A stretch of DNA of 31,138 nt from NCBI GenBank assembly GCA_964586755.1, contig CAZPHJ010000003.1:1-31138 (forward strand), in the 5' to 3' direction. Positions within the stretch are counted from its first letter, which is position 1. Every line of letters begins with the position of its first letter. Shown one piece after another: positions 23,876 to 29,640 of the stretch. A program made the translations under genes and the position numbers. The notes beneath the pieces are model-generated. The model worked only from the letters and a program-made list of their open reading frames with translations, was not told the DNA's origin and did no database searches. Origin of the DNA: an uncultured Candidatus Saccharibacteria bacterium. Lineage in GTDB: Bacteria; Patescibacteriota; Minisyncoccia; Phycocordibacterales; UBA9973.

Positions 23876-26800
23876 TTACACTTTTTCAATTACAATCTCA
23901 CTTCCGGCGAATGTAACACTCTCTGCAAGTACGGTTTTTTTCAAATCACCTTCGAATCCAGCGACTGTATCTTTGGCATTTTCTGGAAGTGTGAGGGTTA
24001 TGACATCGCTTGGAGTAAGTCCTTGTTTCTTTCGAGTGTCTTGAATTGCGCGCACAAGCTCACGATACTCCCCTTCACGCTTGAGCTCGGGAGTGATTTC
24101 CGTATCAAGTTCCACCTCACTTTCAATTGCAGCATCTTGAACTATTTCTTTAACATTCAATTCATCTTTCAAAATTTCATAGTATTCGACTTTCAACTTT
24201 TCACTTTTCACTTTCAACTTGTTTAGGGGTTGTCGCACAGCAAACTTTGCTTTCTGTCGAGCTTCCATTCCAAGCGTCACAGTTTCGCGAACTTTTTGCA
24301 TTTCTTCCAAGACTTTCTGACTTTCGACTTTTGACTCATATTCTGGCCAATTTTCAAAATACACGCTCTTCTCTCCTCCGAGTCGAAGCCAAATATCCTC
24401 TGCCGCAAATGGTGCAAATGGCGCCATGAGCTTCGCTGTAGTTTTCAATACAAAATACAATGTCCGCTTTGCTTCCGCATCGCCATCTTTCATACGATCA
24501 CGACTGCGTCGCACATACCAAGTCGAAAGATCATCAATGAACTCTCGAAGTGCGCGTACTGGTTCGAGCAGTTTGTAATTATCGAGATTCTCCGTCATCG
24601 TCATTGTAAGCTGGTTGAGACGAGCAACAATCCATTGATCGAGGATGTTTTCTGACTGAGCATATTCCCCACTTTCGAGCGCTGTGTCGCGATAGAGCTC
24701 ATAAAAAGCGAGTACGTTATAGAGCAAGTTGAATACTTTGTTGTGGAGTTCCGCAACAGTCTTCTCGTCGAAGTTTTTTGATTCACCTGGCTGGTTCACC
24801 GAGTACATCCACAAGCGAAGCGTATCTACTCCGTATTTTTCAATCATCTCCCACGGGTCAACAATGTTTCCAAGTGACTTACTCATCTTCTTTCCTTCTG
24901 CATCCAGAATGTGTCCGAGACAAACTACATTCTTATATGCGAGTCCGCGACCCATAAGCATTCCAATAGCGTGGAGTGTATAGAACCATCCGCGAGTTTG
25001 GTCGATTGCTTCACAAATAAAGTCTGCCGGATATGCAATCTCTTTTGTCGCAAATGGATAATGATCTTGTGCAAACGGCATCGCACCTGAGTCGAACCAG
25101 ACGTCCATCACTTCATTCACACGCTTCATCGGCTCGCCATTTTCAGAAACGAGTTCTACATGATCGATATATGGTCGATGTAGATCAAGTTCCCAATTGT
25201 GATTGTGCGGGAATGGTACATACGGAACCTCACGCACTTCGGCATTTTCAAAATAGTGAAAATCTTTTTTGTTCTCAATCATCTTGAGTGATTCCTCTGC
25301 GCCAAATCCTTGAATACCAGCCATAAGAAGCCAAGATGGTCCCCCATGACTCACGATAAGTACTTTGCGGTTCTGGAATTTGATCTCAACATCATGTATA
25401 AAATCCATCATCCAACCTTTTACCGTGTTGTATGATTCTCCTCCTTCTGGACCATTGTAAAAATTTTCTACCGTTTTTGGAAAATCTTCATGATATTTAC
25501 TCCATGGGCCTTTGTTATATATTCCAATATCCATCTCGCGAAGACGTTCGTCAAAAAGCATCTCCACTTCCCCGCCGAGTCCTTCGCGGATAATGTCCGC
25601 AGTCTCTCGAGTGCGAACGAATGGCGATGCGATTATGAGATCAATCCCCAATTCCTTGAGTTTTGAAATCTGGTCGGCGACTTGTTTACGACCAAGCTCG
25701 GTGAGGTGCACCGGCTCGTTTGGATCAGCACTCGCCATACCTTTTAGATTATGATCTGCTTCTCCGTGGCGAATAACATGGTATATATTACCAGATTTTT
25801 TGGCTTTCTTTTTCATTTCATCCAGCGAGCCAATCACTTCGATTTTTCCTGATTCTGTCATCCAGATTGGAAGTGGTGTTCCCCAGTATCGTTCACGAGA
25901 AATCGCCCAATCCTTAATATCTTTTAGCCAATCGCCAAAACGACCATCACGGATATATGATGGCTCCCAATTTATTTTTTTGTTTTCCTCGATGAGCCCC
26001 TCTTTAATCTTTGGATCACTCATGCGGATATACCAAGAATCTCGCGCGTAATAGATGAGCGGAGTCTTACAGCGCCAACAATGTGGGTATGAGTGTTCGT
26101 ACTTTTCTTTTTTAAACAAGAGTCCGCGATGTGCAAGGTCCTTGATGATGTCAATTGCAACATCCTCGTCTTTTACAAATCGTCCTTCGAGAAAATCTGT
26201 GCCAGCGATGAATGTTCCATCGAGCGCCACCATATGATGCTTCGGCAGTCCGAGCTTGGTTCCGAGTTCGAAGTCATCTGCACCGTACATTACGGCTGTA
26301 TGAACAACACCAGTTCCGTCAGTCGTAGTAACAAAATCTGCTGGATATACCTTGAATGCTTTTTCGAGTGAAGCTTGTCCTTCAATTTGAGTTTTGAGAT
26401 AAGGATAGAGCGGTTCGTATTCAAACCCGATAAGGTCCAAGCCTTTCATTTTTTCTACAATTTCAAAACCTTCTGGAAGCACACTAGCGCGCGCTTCGGC
26501 GAGAATCAAAAATTCTTCACCAACTTTTACTTTTACATATTCAATATCATTCCCCACTGCAAGCGCGACGTTGCCTGGCAATGTCCATGGAGTTGTCGTC
26601 CACGCAAGTATGTATGTATTTTCCGGACTTTCAACTTTCGACTTTATAACTTTGAACTTGGCCGTGACCGACAGGTCACGGTCGTCCTGATATCCCTGTG
26701 CAAGTTCGTGCGACGAAAGCGCAGTTCCACAGCGCGGACACCATGACACAATACGATAGTCTTTGTAGACGAGTCCTTGATCGTTTACTTTTTGCAACAC

Positions 26801-27286
26801 ATTCCACACAGACTCGATATATGAGTTGTGATACGTCACATACGGATTCTTTTGATCCACCCAATAGCCGATACGGTCGGTAAATTTTTCCCACAAATCT
26901 GTGTATTGCCAAACGCTTTCTTTACACTTGTCGTTGAACTTCGCGATACCATATTCTTCAATCGCTTTTTTGGAATTGAGGCCGAGCGCTTTTTCTACTT
27001 GGAGTTCCACTGGAAGTCCATGCGTATCCCATCCCCCTTTTCGACGAACATGGAATCCCTGCATAGTTTTATAGCGAGGAATCGCATCTTTGAATGCACG
27101 CGCTTCGAGATGGTGAATTCCTGGTTTACCATTCGCAGTTGGTGGACCTTCGAAGAATACAAACTCACCTTTTGGCGAATCTTTTTTGAGTGTCTCCTCA
27201 AAGACATTATTCTCCTTCCAAAAACCGAGAACTTTTTCTTCTCGTTCTGCTGCGGCTGATTTTGGCTTATTTTCAGGTGTTTCCAT
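23876..27286 (-). CDS. ileS: Isoleucyl-tRNA synthetase (type 2) with an inserted histidine-phosphatase domain
   Basis: EGPPTANGKPGIHH, GWDTHGLPVE, WTTTPWTLP, HSYPHCWRC, WAISRERYWGTP, DVWFDSG, EAIDQTRGWF, KMSKS. Insert approx. 25225-25790 carries RHG...SP..R..ET...E...SHG. Confidence 0.98.
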   Translation of the reverse strand: METPENKPKSAAAEREEKVLGFWKENNVFEETLKKDSPKGEFVFFEGPPTANGKPGIHHLEARAFKDAIPRYKTMQGFHVRRKGGWDTHGLPVELQVEKALGLNSKKAIEEYGIAKFNDKCKESVWQYTDLWEKFTDRIGYWVDQKNPYVTYHNSYIESVWNVLQKVNDQGLVYKDYRIVSWCPRCGTALSSHELAQGYQDDRDLSVTAKFKVIKSKVESPENTYILAWTTTPWTLPGNVALAVGNDIEYVKVKVGEEFLILAEARASVLPEGFEIVEKMKGLDLIGFEYEPLYPYLKTQIEGQASLEKAFKVYPADFVTTTDGTGVVHTAVMYGADDFELGTKLGLPKHHMVALDGTFIAGTDFLEGRFVKDEDVAIDIIKDLAHRGLLFKKEKYEHSYPHCWRCKTPLIYYARDSWYIRMSDPKIKEGLIEENKKINWEPSYIRDGRFGDWLKDIKDWAISRERYWGTPLPIWMTESGKIEVIGSLDEMKKKAKKSGNIYHVIRHGEADHNLKGMASADPNEPVHLTELGRKQVADQISKLKELGIDLIIASPFVRTRETADIIREGLGGEVEMLFDERLREMDIGIYNKGPWSKYHEDFPKTVENFYNGPEGGESYNTVKGWMMDFIHDVEIKFQNRKVLIVSHGGPSWLLMAGIQGFGAEESLKMIENKKDFHYFENAEVREVPYVPFPHNHNWELDLHRPYIDHVELVSENGEPMKRVNEVMDVWFDSGAMPFAQDHYPFATKEIAYPADFICEAIDQTRGWFYTLHAIGMLMGRGLAYKNVVCLGHILDAEGKKMSKSLGNIVDPWEMIEKYGVDTLRLWMYSVNQPGESKNFDEKTVAELHNKVFNLLYNVLAFYELYRDTALESGEYAQSENILDQWIVARLNQLTMTMTENLDNYKLLEPVRALREFIDDLSTWYVRRSRDRMKDGDAEAKRTLYFVLKTTAKLMAPFAPFAAEDIWLRLGGEKSVYFENWPEYESKVESQKVLEEMQKVRETVTLGMEARQKAKFAVRQPLNKLKVKSEKLKVEYYEILKDELNVKEIVQDAAIESEVELDTEITPELKREGEYRELVRAIQDTRKKQGLTPSDVITLTLPENAKDTVAGFEGDLKKTVLAESVTFAGSEIVIEKV
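24188..24222 (-). repeat. In-frame heptamer array inside ileS (encodes KLKVKSEKLKVE)
   Basis: Plus strand gactttc-aactttt-cactttt-cactttc-aacttgt. Confidence 0.85.
24311..24339 (-). repeat. In-frame 7/8-mer array inside ileS (encodes ESKVESQKV)
   Basis: Plus strand gactttct-gactttc-gactttt-gactcat. Confidence 0.75.
26626..26661 (-). repeat. In-frame 7/8-mer array inside ileS (encodes KFKVIKSKVES)
   Basis: Plus strand gactttc-aactttc-gactttat-aactttg-aacttgg. Confidence 0.8.
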
Positions 27287-27291
27287 GATAC

Positions 27292-27320
27292 TTGACTAAA
27301 TTATTAATAAGGTGTATAAT
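27292..27320 (+). promoter_or_regulatory. Near-consensus sigma70 promoter, antisense to the ileS leader
   Basis: TTGACT-N17-TATAAT, starting 6 nt from the ileS start codon. Confidence 0.8.
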
Positions 27321-27342
27321 AAGTAGAATTAAAACTTGTTTT

Positions 27343-27534
27343 ATGACAACAACTCAATTTTGGATACTGTTTTCTGTTTGCTGGACAGGCTTTGGCCTAA
27401 GTACACTTAAGTCATCAAAAGAATGGAAGTATCCGCCGCCCTGGCTCCTTGCCCGACTAACTGTTGTTGCATTATGGCCAATATTTGAATTTGAAATATA
27501 TGTTTTTTTGCCGAAAAATAATACGGAAAAATAA
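27343..27534 (+). CDS. 63-aa small hydrophobic (membrane) protein, antisense within the ileS leader
   Basis: MTTTQFWILFSVCWTGFGLSTLKSSKEWKYPPPWLLARLTVVALWPIFEFEIYVFLPKNNTEK*, with two hydrophobic segments, a promoter upstream and a terminator immediately downstream. Confidence 0.58.
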   Translation: MTTTQFWILFSVCWTGFGLSTLKSSKEWKYPPPWLLARLTVVALWPIFEFEIYVFLPKNNTEK

Positions 27535-27535
27535 C

Positions 27536-27716
27536 AAAAACCCGTCCTCGCATCACGACAAAAGTCATGATTGCAAGGACGGGTTTCTTTTTTATATAAG
27601 AAATCGTGGTACCACCTTCTTTCCCCTCTGGTATTCCTTCGGGCTTATTTATAGGGGTTCTAGGTGCTCTACAGCATTTCTTCCCCAAGCTCCAGGGTGA
27701 TAGCCCTTTCATCGCT
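27536..27716 (-). ncRNA. T-box riboswitch (Ile, AUC specifier) with ultrashort Stem I and a transcriptional terminator
   Basis: Stem I AGC-GAUGAA-AGGG-CU-AUC-A-CCCU-GGA-GCU (27716-27688). Stem II with S-turn GGGG-AAGAA-AUGC..GCAC-CUAGAA-CCCC (27686-27654). T-box AAGG-UGGU-ACC-ACG (27618-27605) pairs with CGU-CCUU (27581-27575). That strand also forms the terminator AAACCCGUCCU...AGGACGGGUUU followed by UUGUUAUUUU. Confidence 0.92.
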
Positions 27717-27872
27717 TCTATTCTCATAATACTAAAATTTGCATGTAAGTAAAGAGAGGTATAAAATTTTCTGCAAAGCTCCTCCCACCTTATATACTTC
27801 AACTTGAACATAAGCCATAACTATCTAGGTGCCAATTCGCCTCAATTGCCACCCACAACTTAAGAGCTTTTG

Positions 27873-27933: not shown

Positions 27934-29640
27934 TTACATTTTCTCTGGTACTTCAATACCAAGAAGATACAGACCATTTTTCATAGTTTTGAGAAACGAT
28001 TCAACGAGTGCAAGTTTGTATGACGAAGCTTCATCAGTCTCGTCGATGATTTTTCCGGTTGCATACCAACTATTAAATAATTGTCCAAGTTCCACCAAAT
28101 AGCCCACAACGTGATGCGGTGCCCATTCGTTGATTGATACAGTTACAACATCTGGAAAACGAGAGATCATTCTTTCAAGGTTTGTTGTTATCCAACCGGA
28201 AGGAATATTTGCATTCGGATTCAATTGGACTTCTTTTGCTTTTTGTAAAATTGAATTTGCTCGAACAGCCGTGTACTGCAGATACGGACCTGAATCTCCT
28301 TCGAAAGAAAGTGATGTCTCTGGATCAAAGTTAATATTCTTTCCGGCTGTCGCACGAAGAATCGTGAATTTAAGCGCAGCGATAGCAATCGCATCTATCG
28401 TACCCTTGTCAGCTTCTTTATGAAGCGACTTTGATTGAAGAGCGACTTCTTCAACGAGAGTATCGACGATGGTCTGCGCGAGTGGAACGCCTCCAAGACG
28501 TGACGACATCTTTTGTCCTTTGAAACTCATGCGTCCGTGGGTTCGATGTACAGTCTTCTCCTTCCATTCACTATGAACTTTTCCAGCGGCAGTACTTACA
28601 ACCTTGAAATATTCTGTCTGTTCATGGTCGGTAATGAAAATTGAAAGATCAGGAGAATACTTTTTGAACTTGAGCGACATAAGGCCAACATCTTTGGCTT
28701 CATATGTCGGATACCCTTCTTTATTGATAAACACACGGGTATGCAGTCCATCCTGTTCCCCTTCATAAATGTATGCGCCTTCTGATTGTTTAAAAACTGT
28801 AGGCGTATTATCACGGATTATTTTCGCACCTTCGACACCTGCTTCGCTTTCAAAAATAAATGCGTCGAAATGCGAACCGAGGCGTGCCGTTATTTCTTGA
28901 AAATACGTAAGATTAATTATTTTTCCTTCTTCATAAACTTGGTATGCGATACTATCCACATCCTGATCGTATAATTGAGCAGTAATTGCTTTTATTTCTT
29001 TTGCAACTTCTGGATCTTCTTCGTATGCTTTTGTTCCACGAACATAACAATCTCCTAAATAAGCTAGCGCACTAAGCGTCGAATCAAATGATTTGATTTT
29101 TTCCACTCCGCCTTCCTGCAAAATAACCCAGACGGCCTTTGCAATACCCAAAGAGATATCGGATGGGTATGAAATAAGTGTCACCTCAGCACCCGAGTAT
29201 CGAGCAATTCGAGTAATTGATTCCCCGATCGCATTGTTCATCACATGCCCAATATGAAAAGGTTTGAACAGATTTGGGCTTGAGTGTTCAACAAGAATTT
29301 TTTTACCAGCGTAAGAATTATTTTTTCCCCAATTTGAATCTACCAAAACATTGGCAATTGCTTTTCCAAAAAATTCTTTCGAGAGATAGAAGTTAATAAA
29401 TCCTGGACCAGCGATTTCGATTTTTTCGATTTCGGTTGGTTTGTTCTTTTCAATCTCGGCGACGATTTTTTCAGCGAGAGCGCGAGGGCTTATCTGTGCA
29501 GCTTTGGCGTACGCCAAAGCTGCACTCGTTGAATAATCACCATTCGTAATTTCTGCCGGGTGCTCAAGCACAACATTCTCAGCTTCGATGCCGAGATTTT
29601 TGAGTGCATTTTTTACAATTTGTTCGAGTGTATCTTTCAT
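27934..29640 (-). CDS. argS: Arginyl-tRNA synthetase
   Basis: GDYST, IEIAGPGFINF, EHSSPNLFKPFHIGH, KMSSR, FEGDSGPYLQY..VRANSIL. Confidence 0.98.
   Translation of the reverse strand: MKDTLEQIVKNALKNLGIEAENVVLEHPAEITNGDYSTSAALAYAKAAQISPRALAEKIVAEIEKNKPTEIEKIEIAGPGFINFYLSKEFFGKAIANVLVDSNWGKNNSYAGKKILVEHSSPNLFKPFHIGHVMNNAIGESITRIARYSGAEVTLISYPSDISLGIAKAVWVILQEGGVEKIKSFDSTLSALAYLGDCYVRGTKAYEEDPEVAKEIKAITAQLYDQDVDSIAYQVYEEGKIINLTYFQEITARLGSHFDAFIFESEAGVEGAKIIRDNTPTVFKQSEGAYIYEGEQDGLHTRVFINKEGYPTYEAKDVGLMSLKFKKYSPDLSIFITDHEQTEYFKVVSTAAGKVHSEWKEKTVHRTHGRMSFKGQKMSSRLGGVPLAQTIVDTLVEEVALQSKSLHKEADKGTIDAIAIAALKFTILRATAGKNINFDPETSLSFEGDSGPYLQYTAVRANSILQKAKEVQLNPNANIPSGWITTNLERMISRFPDVVTVSINEWAPHHVVGYLVELGQLFNSWYATGKIIDETDEASSYKLALVESFLKTMKNGLYLLGIEVPEKM

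Follow-up and report, generated by a model that had tools for sequence, protein, structure and literature searches.

We analysed a stretch of 31,138 nucleotides (nt) from an uncultured Candidatus Saccharibacteria bacterium (GenBank assembly GCA_964586755.1, contig CAZPHJ010000003.1, positions 1 to 31,138), which we refer to as the window, and focused on the leader of its isoleucyl-tRNA synthetase gene, ileS. The leader element lies on the minus strand at 27716..27527, in the intergenic region between argS (27934..29640) and ileS (23876..27286, minus strand), both identified by Pfam. The product of ileS has 1136 amino acids (aa) and matches tRNA-synt_1 (E 3.5e-117), Anticodon_1 (2.2e-31) and His_Phos_1 (1.9e-31). 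The original prediction had described the leader as a T-box, that is, as a tRNA-sensing riboswitch, in which an ultrashort Stem I is combined with a transcription terminator. The leader elements were read from the reverse complement and each position was then located by script. All parts that had been named were recovered in place: the 29-nt Stem I, the K-turn, the AUC specifier, the S-turn, the UGGU-ACC bulge, the shared CGUCCU and the terminator. The leader is a genuine T-box, and the initial observation is confirmed.

Stem I (27688..27716) is exactly 29 nt long and consists of a K-turn, a helix of 4-5 bp and the apical loop CUAUCA. The K-turn at its base is made up of AGC, a GAU bulge, GA opposite GA, and GCU, and the GA dinucleotides are nearly invariant in an alignment of leaders from related genomes (A1, see below). 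Stem I has no distal platform for the tRNA elbow but is capped by the specifier loop; upstream of it, we found no AGAGA or GGUGNAA distal elements, unlike in the leaders of Firmicutes and low-G+C Actinobacteria. The specifier AUC (27699..27701), which is followed by a conserved purine (A at 27698), is complementary to the anticodon GAU of tRNA-Ile. It agrees, as had been proposed, with the gene downstream, whose identity as ileS is confirmed by the matches to tRNA-synt_1 and Anticodon_1. Stem II (27654..27686) has a base helix GGGG/CCCC, an S-turn region and an upper helix UGCU/AGCA with a GUAG loop. Its putative S-turn is a variant with GAAGAA opposite CUAGAA, compared to GAAGAA opposite AGUAGA in the family consensus; the CUAGA variant also occurs in the leaders L002 and L010 and in the actinobacterial leaders L154 and L157. 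The upper helix is wholly different in genome G013 of the same genus, yet a hairpin is formed there too. Between Stem II and Stem III, a single-stranded linker of 10 nt, UAUAAAUAAG (27644..27653), occupies the place of the Stem IIA/B pseudoknot. We did not find this pseudoknot in the leader, which bears out the suspicion that it was not recognisable here. Stem III (27624..27643) pairs CCC with GGG around an inserted mini-hairpin (GG AAUA CC), and conserved purines then precede the T-box sequence. At the sequence level, the same stem is present in the genomes G013, G009 and G012, of which G009 and G012 differ from the window at several positions, and its insertion is shared with G013.

The T-box sequence AAGGUGGUACCACG (27605..27618) forms the 5' strand of the antiterminator and contains the bulge UGGUACC (27614..27608), whose UGGU is predicted to pair with the ACCA 3' end of uncharged tRNA-Ile. 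It pairs with the switching sequence CGUCCUU (27575..27581), which results in an antiterminator with a 7-nt bulge. The antiterminator loop carries an insertion of 23 nt (27582..27604) with a potential small hairpin (UUUCUU ... AAGAAA); this insertion is common to G013 and missing in most relatives. CGUCCUU also belongs to the 5' arm of an intrinsic terminator (27527..27586), which consists of a 49-nt hairpin (27586..27538) followed by the U-tract UUUUUGUUAUUUUU. The two folds are mutually exclusive, with about -6.6 kcal/mol for the antiterminator versus -36.4 kcal/mol for the terminator hairpin. The 201-nt leader as a whole folds with -71.8 kcal/mol (z = -6.1 compared to shuffled sequences), with the terminator formed. 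When the leader is cut before the 3' arm of the terminator, it folds no better than the shuffles (z = -0.8), which fits a weak antiterminator that competes with the terminator.

At gathering thresholds, no Rfam family matches anywhere in the window. At relaxed thresholds, the T-box family RF00230 matches at 27572..27721 on the minus strand with 27.8 bits (E 3.8e-4 for the 801 nt searched); genome-wide, the E-value is 7.6e-5 and the match is the only one of its kind in the 692-kb genome. The alignment covers the K-turn, the T-box sequence and the antiterminator, and 76 Stem I positions of the model are deleted. The RF00230 model is built around a long Stem I. The expectation that this family would recognise the leader thus held for the relaxed search but not for the gathering score, and standard Rfam annotation overlooks the leader because 27.8 bits are compared to a cut-off of 93. 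Other relaxed Rfam matches (rnk leader, Phe leader, RefA9 and Yfr17) cover only the terminator hairpin and were dismissed. Two open reading frames (ORFs) that overlap the leader (27407..27811 on the minus and 27464..27700 on the plus strand) do not match any Pfam family, and the RNA accounts for them.

To compare the leader across genomes, we used both RF00230 and a model of our own. Weak RF00230 matches, each 120-170 nt long, were found in 30 of the 36 other genomes of the family, and all 51 matches in 61 related genomes score below the gathering score (21-70 bits). The sequences extracted from these relatives share the ultrashort Stem I, the terminator and the U-tract, and an ATG with an IleRS-like N-terminus usually follows within tens of bases. 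We aligned 25 leaders of related genomes (alignment A1) and built from them the covariance model R1, which was searched over 100 sources and yielded 101 matches (alignment A2). R1 covers only 16 pairs; for the K-turn stem, the upper part of Stem II and Stem III, we relied on visual inspection of the alignments. RNAalifold on A1 detects compensatory changes that back Stem I, the base of Stem II and both antiterminator helices. Across the 96 distinct sequences of A2, the 16 pairs of the model are formed in 97.8% of cases, and 258 cells are changed on both sides compared to 69 ± 9.5 in shuffles; A2 was fitted to the model, so that the pairing counts lean towards the structure, but the margin is still large. 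When the partners are slid by 1-3 columns as a control, at most 57% are paired. Considering the helices separately, the Stem I helix is 96.8% paired with changes on both sides at all three pairs, the Stem II base helix is 97.8% paired, and the antiterminator helices are 98% paired across the 96 sequences.

The alignment A1 further reveals that the specifier and the bulge change together. In 21 leaders, which are followed by IleRS-like starts, the specifier reads AUCA; the other four leaders are of the Asp type and read GACA, and two of them (L017 and L031) lie ahead of ORF starts that look AspRS-like by eye. The sequence GGUGG.ACC is invariant. The fourth base of the bulge is U in all Ile leaders (UGGU) and C in all Asp leaders (UGGC). 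This switch with the specifier would be expected if the base pairs with the discriminator, which is A73 in tRNA-Ile and G73 in tRNA-Asp. The genomes G009 and G001 of the same genus contain a tRNA-Ile(GAU) with discriminator A73 and no encoded CCA; its anticodon GAU matches AUC, and A73 matches the U of UGGU.

The pseudoknot varies among the relatives. The Stem IIA/B motif (CGGG..CCCG..AUAGC) is present in 48 and absent from 45 of 93 scorable related leaders, where the tally is a rough motif match that may misclassify a few rows either way. Even within the genus, the pseudoknot is present in G012 and absent from G013, G009 and G005. Five ileS T-boxes (L092, L049, L064, L069 and L094) of only 115-119 nt have neither the pseudoknot nor Stem III and retain a strong terminator; in these, a purine-rich linker of about 20 nt, AAAUGAGAAGUAAGCAA, joins Stem II to the T-box sequence.

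We next consider how widely the architecture occurs. In samples of 151 genomes each, one from the order and one from the whole phylum, R1 has matches in 49 genomes in both cases, and in the phylum sample a single genome can have as many as seven. A strict DNA pattern for the ultrashort Ile Stem I and the T-box sequence, run on species-representative genomes, detected at least 116 loci. The taxa among the pattern matches listed are nearly all Patescibacteria (Nomurabacteria, Paceibacterota, Moraniibacteriota, Saccharibacteria and Minisyncoccia), and at 95 of the 116 loci listed the first long downstream ORF is an IleRS homologue. According to our script, 88 of these 116 loci have both an ultrashort, complementary Stem I and, followed by a U-tract, a hairpin of at most -12 kcal/mol (median -27 kcal/mol), so that the architecture recurs in ileS leaders across the candidate phyla radiation (CPR), as a survey suggested with the original prediction was meant to find out. 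The remaining loci listed comprise seven with a weaker terminator call, five without a terminator (four Actinobacteria, including Rothia and Nesterenkonia, and one false positive), seven Firmicutes leaders with an ordinary long Stem I, five that are cut by the end of the locus and four chance matches. The assumption that T-boxes are not a standard feature of the phylum is contradicted by these counts, that is, by the 30 of 36 family genomes with weak RF00230 matches and the R1 matches in the order and phylum samples. The sequence is furthermore present in wastewater metagenomes.

Several apparent extensions of this range were rejected. Matches in Firmicutes that seemed to combine an ultrashort T-box with a terminator (the Erysipelotrichaceae Solobacterium and Copranaerobaculum, a 'Staphylococcaceae' metagenome-assembled genome and Acidaminobacter) are ordinary long-Stem-I leaders, as AGAGA and GGUGNAA distal elements lie upstream. 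A spread to Proteobacteria is suggested by titles such as 'uncultured Pseudomonadales' and 'Bdellovibrionales' (L033, L086, L061, L071 and L088), but these labels are probably wrong: all five carry CPR-type T-boxes, the genomes of L033, L086, L061 and L071 have 0.8-1.0 Mb, and we take them as mislabelled CPR genomes. A complementary Stem I is missing from the pattern hits in Solirubrobacterales, Hylemonella and two others, which matched by chance. Within the Patescibacteria, one genome of 1.1 Mb (G344) has seven matches to the ultrashort T-box model, and leaders from other genomes of the phylum sample have the specifiers GAC, AAC and GUC. T-boxes may thus be a main regulatory device in some lineages.

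Given the RF00230 alignment, the folding z-score of -6.1, the covariation in R1, the switching of specifier and bulge, the IleRS context and the recurrence of the terminator, it is very probable that the leader is a functional T-box riboswitch that senses tRNA-Ile and controls ileS by transcription attenuation. A promoter-like site just upstream (27726..27753, minus strand) consists of TTTACT, a 16-nt spacer and TATTAT, with 9 of 12 consensus matches, and predicts a transcript start at about 27721, immediately 5' of the K-turn. At the equivalent position, a -10-like hexamer is present in 85 of the 116 listed related loci, compared to 30 in a control window farther upstream. Transcription would start at this promoter, and the nascent leader would fold into the K-turn, the 29-nt Stem I and Stem II. 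As in Class III T-boxes, the anticodon stem-loop of tRNA-Ile(GAU) may then be clamped by the AUC loop together with the Stem II S-turn, without contact to the elbow; we infer this from the solved Class III complexes (PMC7583486, PMC10482949). Direct stacking of Stem III on Stem II may stand in for the missing pseudoknot. If the tRNA is uncharged, its ACCA end would pair with UGGU and stabilise the antiterminator, CGUCCUU would be sequestered, and the polymerase would read through, across about 250 nt, into ileS. If the tRNA is charged, the antiterminator would not be stabilised, CGUCCUU would join the terminator of -36 kcal/mol, and transcription would stop near 27535.

Several observations weigh against this interpretation. 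The RF00230 score is far below the gathering score, and this copy has neither a platform for the tRNA elbow nor a Stem IIA/B pseudoknot. An unusually long distance separates the ileS start codon from the terminator, and a convergent promoter is directed into the leader; regulation may thus be more complex here than in the relatives. Furthermore, the cognate tRNA-Ile(GAU) was not found by ARAGORN and a pattern search in the assembly, which is 87.6% complete. Among the 30 tRNAs that ARAGORN detects in the assembly is a tRNA-Ile(UAU) (G000:C27:5813-5887). In G013, the only pattern match to tRNA-Ile(GAU) is cut by a contig end, which suggests that the gene may be lost in the assembly here too. Lastly, the expression data are ambiguous. 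A wastewater metatranscriptome (X20) contains a 180-nt contig with a depth of about 3 that is identical to 27583..27762, and nothing in it is identical to argS, the spacer or ileS. This contig is weakly compatible with an abundant terminated leader, but it extends to 40 nt upstream of the predicted start, and a contig from a DNA run ends at the same base (27583); it therefore shows neither the start nor the termination of a transcript.

The alternative that fares best, although we regard it as unlikely, concerns the region between the terminator and ileS. A read-through transcript has to cross a spacer of 240 nt here (27287..27526), and the ileS ATG lies about 250 nt past the terminator. On the plus strand, the spacer contains a convergent promoter (27292..27320; TTGACT, a 17-nt spacer and TATAAT) that matches the consensus at 11 of 12 positions, and a small ORF of 63 aa (27343..27534), two-helix-like, that runs into the T-box terminator. 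The terminator has a T-run on its plus-strand side as well; since T-runs flank both sides, it could serve both directions. According to this alternative, the hairpin 27586..27538 would mainly terminate the plus-strand small gene and ileS would be transcribed from its own promoter in the spacer, whereas the T-box would be a relic or act only by antisense or transcriptional interference. The spacer is indeed an insertion relative to a close strain, where 391 nt (27264..27654) are replaced by 133 nt (DNA run X4), so that no spacer exists there, and similar convergent small ORFs lie behind T-box terminators in about nine other genomes. In most relatives, however, the terminator directly precedes the ileS ATG and there is no convergent gene, which suggests that the coupling of the terminator to the T-box came first. 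In genome G013 (L043), which belongs to the same genus, T-box and terminator are nearly identical and the last 45 nt ahead of the ATG are unchanged, although the body of the ORF, about 190 bp, is unrelated. In addition, we found no minus-strand promoter-like site within the spacer, so ileS seems to depend on read-through. Attenuation of ileS by the T-box thus remains the preferred reading, with interference from the convergent promoter as a possible addition.

The interval from 27287 to 27590 appears to be a variable slot for small genes, located between the T-box terminator and ileS. Proteins of 61-65 aa that look similar are encoded convergently in L075, L079 and L115, and further convergent ORFs are present in L099, L103, L113 and L147. 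In L107 and L050, an ORF of about 85 aa on the sense strand lies between the terminator and ileS; it has several hydrophobic stretches, is membrane-like and, by its look, is possibly SemiSWEET/PQ-loop-like. Such a gene would be co-regulated by the charging of tRNA-Ile.

A second alternative, for which we see even less room, is that the T-box acts on translation or mRNA stability as in Actinobacteria and that the hairpin is a processing or stability element. Class III aptamers are described as mostly translational (PMC10482949, PMC7583486). Furthermore, one G+C-rich family of Patescibacteria (L192, L206, L207 and L210) has the ultrashort-Stem-I Ile aptamer without a U-tract; in this family, a GAGG located about 7 nt 5' of the ATG is enclosed in a helix (CCUCGC ... 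GCGAGG), which is apparently a Shine-Dalgarno sequestrator. In the window, however, CGUCCUU cannot sequester the ribosome-binding site of ileS, because about 250 nt separate the switching sequence from the start codon downstream. The G+C-rich 49-nt hairpin that is directly followed by a U-tract is the signature of an intrinsic terminator, and the actinobacterial members sampled lack such a U-tract. We therefore favour transcription attenuation over a translational mechanism.

The comparison to Actinobacteria is based on a sample of Actinomycetota centred on a Rothia genome, in which 26 of 151 genomes have R1 matches. In the high-G+C actinobacterial matches (L148-L157), Stem I is ultrashort and no terminator with a U-tract is present; in several of them the ATG lies within about 40-80 nt. 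In the Rothia leader, we see by eye a pairing between CGUCCUUG and a CAAGGGCG just 5' of the ATG, which corresponds to the translational class already described. Low-G+C actinobacterial matches have terminators, but with the canonical long Stem I. An ultrashort Stem I together with a terminator was never found in the 151 Actinomycetota genomes sampled. As the two features never combine in this sample but do so as a rule in Patescibacteria, the sequence comparison supports the reading of the leader as a hybrid: the combination is really different from the described actinobacterial class, and the contrast that the original prediction had drawn to that class holds up. Since Patescibacteria have the same aptamer with terminators in most cases and with Shine-Dalgarno sequestrators in one family, the expression platform seems to be interchangeable rather than fixed. 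The pattern thus looks like modular swapping of platforms rather than a frozen evolutionary intermediate.

Chance, that is, an A+T-rich intergenic region containing T-box-like words by accident, is hardly conceivable as an explanation despite the sub-threshold Rfam score and the spurious 134-aa ORF that overlaps the region: specifier, discriminator-pairing base and downstream gene are all concordant, and at the level of sequence comparison it is already refuted by about 100 other genomes in which ileS is preceded by this multi-part architecture, with compensatory changes.

When comparing the leader to known systems, we find that the closest are the Class III ileS T-boxes of Actinobacteria (Nocardia farcinica, Mycobacterium tuberculosis and M. 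smegmatis; PMC7583486, PMC10482949). These likewise have a K-turn, a short Stem I with AUC in an apical loop of 5-6 nt and no elbow-binding double T-loop platform, and they share the Stem II S-turn, Stem III, the T-box bulge and the control of ileS. In agreement with this, R1, although built from Patescibacteria leaders, scores the actinobacterial leaders L074, L095, L128 and L138 at 76-90 bits. Class III differs in using a Shine-Dalgarno sequestrator instead of an intrinsic terminator and in its Stem IIA/B pseudoknot, which is reportedly needed for tRNA binding in N. farcinica (PMC7583486) and is missing in this copy. The hosts differ as well, namely Actinobacteria for Class III and here a Patescibacteria genome of about 0.7 Mb and 42% G+C. 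Unlike the ileS type of Class III, the same architecture serves Asp and other specifiers in related Patescibacteria genomes. With Class I (Bacillus subtilis tyrS, RF00230), the leader has in common the specifier, the K-turn, Stems II and III, the T-box sequence, the competing antiterminator and terminator, and the control of a synthetase by read-through. In Class I, however, Stem I has about 80-100 nt compared to 29 nt here, with an AG bulge and an elbow-docking distal loop that are missing here, and the specifier is in an internal rather than a terminal loop. The intermediate-Stem-I ileS T-boxes of Class IV (Actinomyces odontolyticus, PMC10482949) share the absence of an elbow platform, the dependence on Stem II and the location in an ileS leader. 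Class IV-like leaders occur in the family relatives L003 and L011; the leader in the window is not one of them.

Four classes of T-boxes have been defined, of which Class III and IV 'mostly' regulate translation (PMC10482949), a wording that leaves room for exceptions. For the Nocardia Class III RNA, a dissociation constant of about 24 nM is reported (PMC7583486, PMC10482949); in Nocardia, deletion of the pseudoknot cost about 1200-fold in binding, of which a simple hairpin put in its place regained 200-fold. The Class II (translational) model of TBDB was run on Actinobacteria and otherwise only on T-boxes that the Class I model had picked up with a truncated Stem I, and the text and supplements of TBDB do not mention candidate phyla. 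Our full-text literature search for T-boxes together with Patescibacteria, candidate phyla radiation, Saccharibacteria or Parcubacteria returned no relevant paper, although older T-box surveys might mention a few such leaders. While the parts of the leader are known, the literature that we found describes neither their combination nor the further reductions nor this host phylum. Whether the Patescibacteria contain a large undescribed class of T-boxes, with a Class III-type aptamer, an intrinsic terminator and no elbow platform, about half of them without the pseudoknot and some (115-120 nt) also without Stem III, is in our judgement an evenly balanced question.

In T-box reviews, the long Stem I and the elbow contact are tied to the speed needed by transcriptional switches, and the ultrashort Stem I is assigned to slower translational switches of Actinobacteria. 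This kinetic argument would be put to the test by a phylum in which the ultrashort aptamer is routinely joined to a terminator. If these T-boxes are functional, much less RNA than current models assume suffices for co-transcriptional tRNA sensing, and the association of a short Stem I with translation would reflect the sampling of Actinobacteria rather than a mechanistic constraint. Many of the leaders also lack the pseudoknot considered necessary for binding. The leaders would be naturally minimal tRNA-sensing modules of about 105-150 nt, suitable for structural and synthetic work. Our results also indicate that annotation based on Rfam misses a main form of synthetase regulation in these reduced genomes. 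Organisms with such reduced genomes import amino acids; sensing of tRNA charging may thus be among the few regulatory inputs that they retain.

Two additional observations concern the synthetase and the tRNA set of this genome. Residues 504-666 of IleRS (25289-25777, minus strand) form an inserted histidine-phosphatase domain (His_Phos_1), which splits the tRNA-synt_1 match; with 1136 aa, the protein is longer than the IleRS ORFs of about 890-990 aa at other loci that are not cut by the end of the locus. ARAGORN also detects a tRNA with the anticodon UUA (G000:C2:26510-26583), which is labelled 'Stop' and would read UAA.

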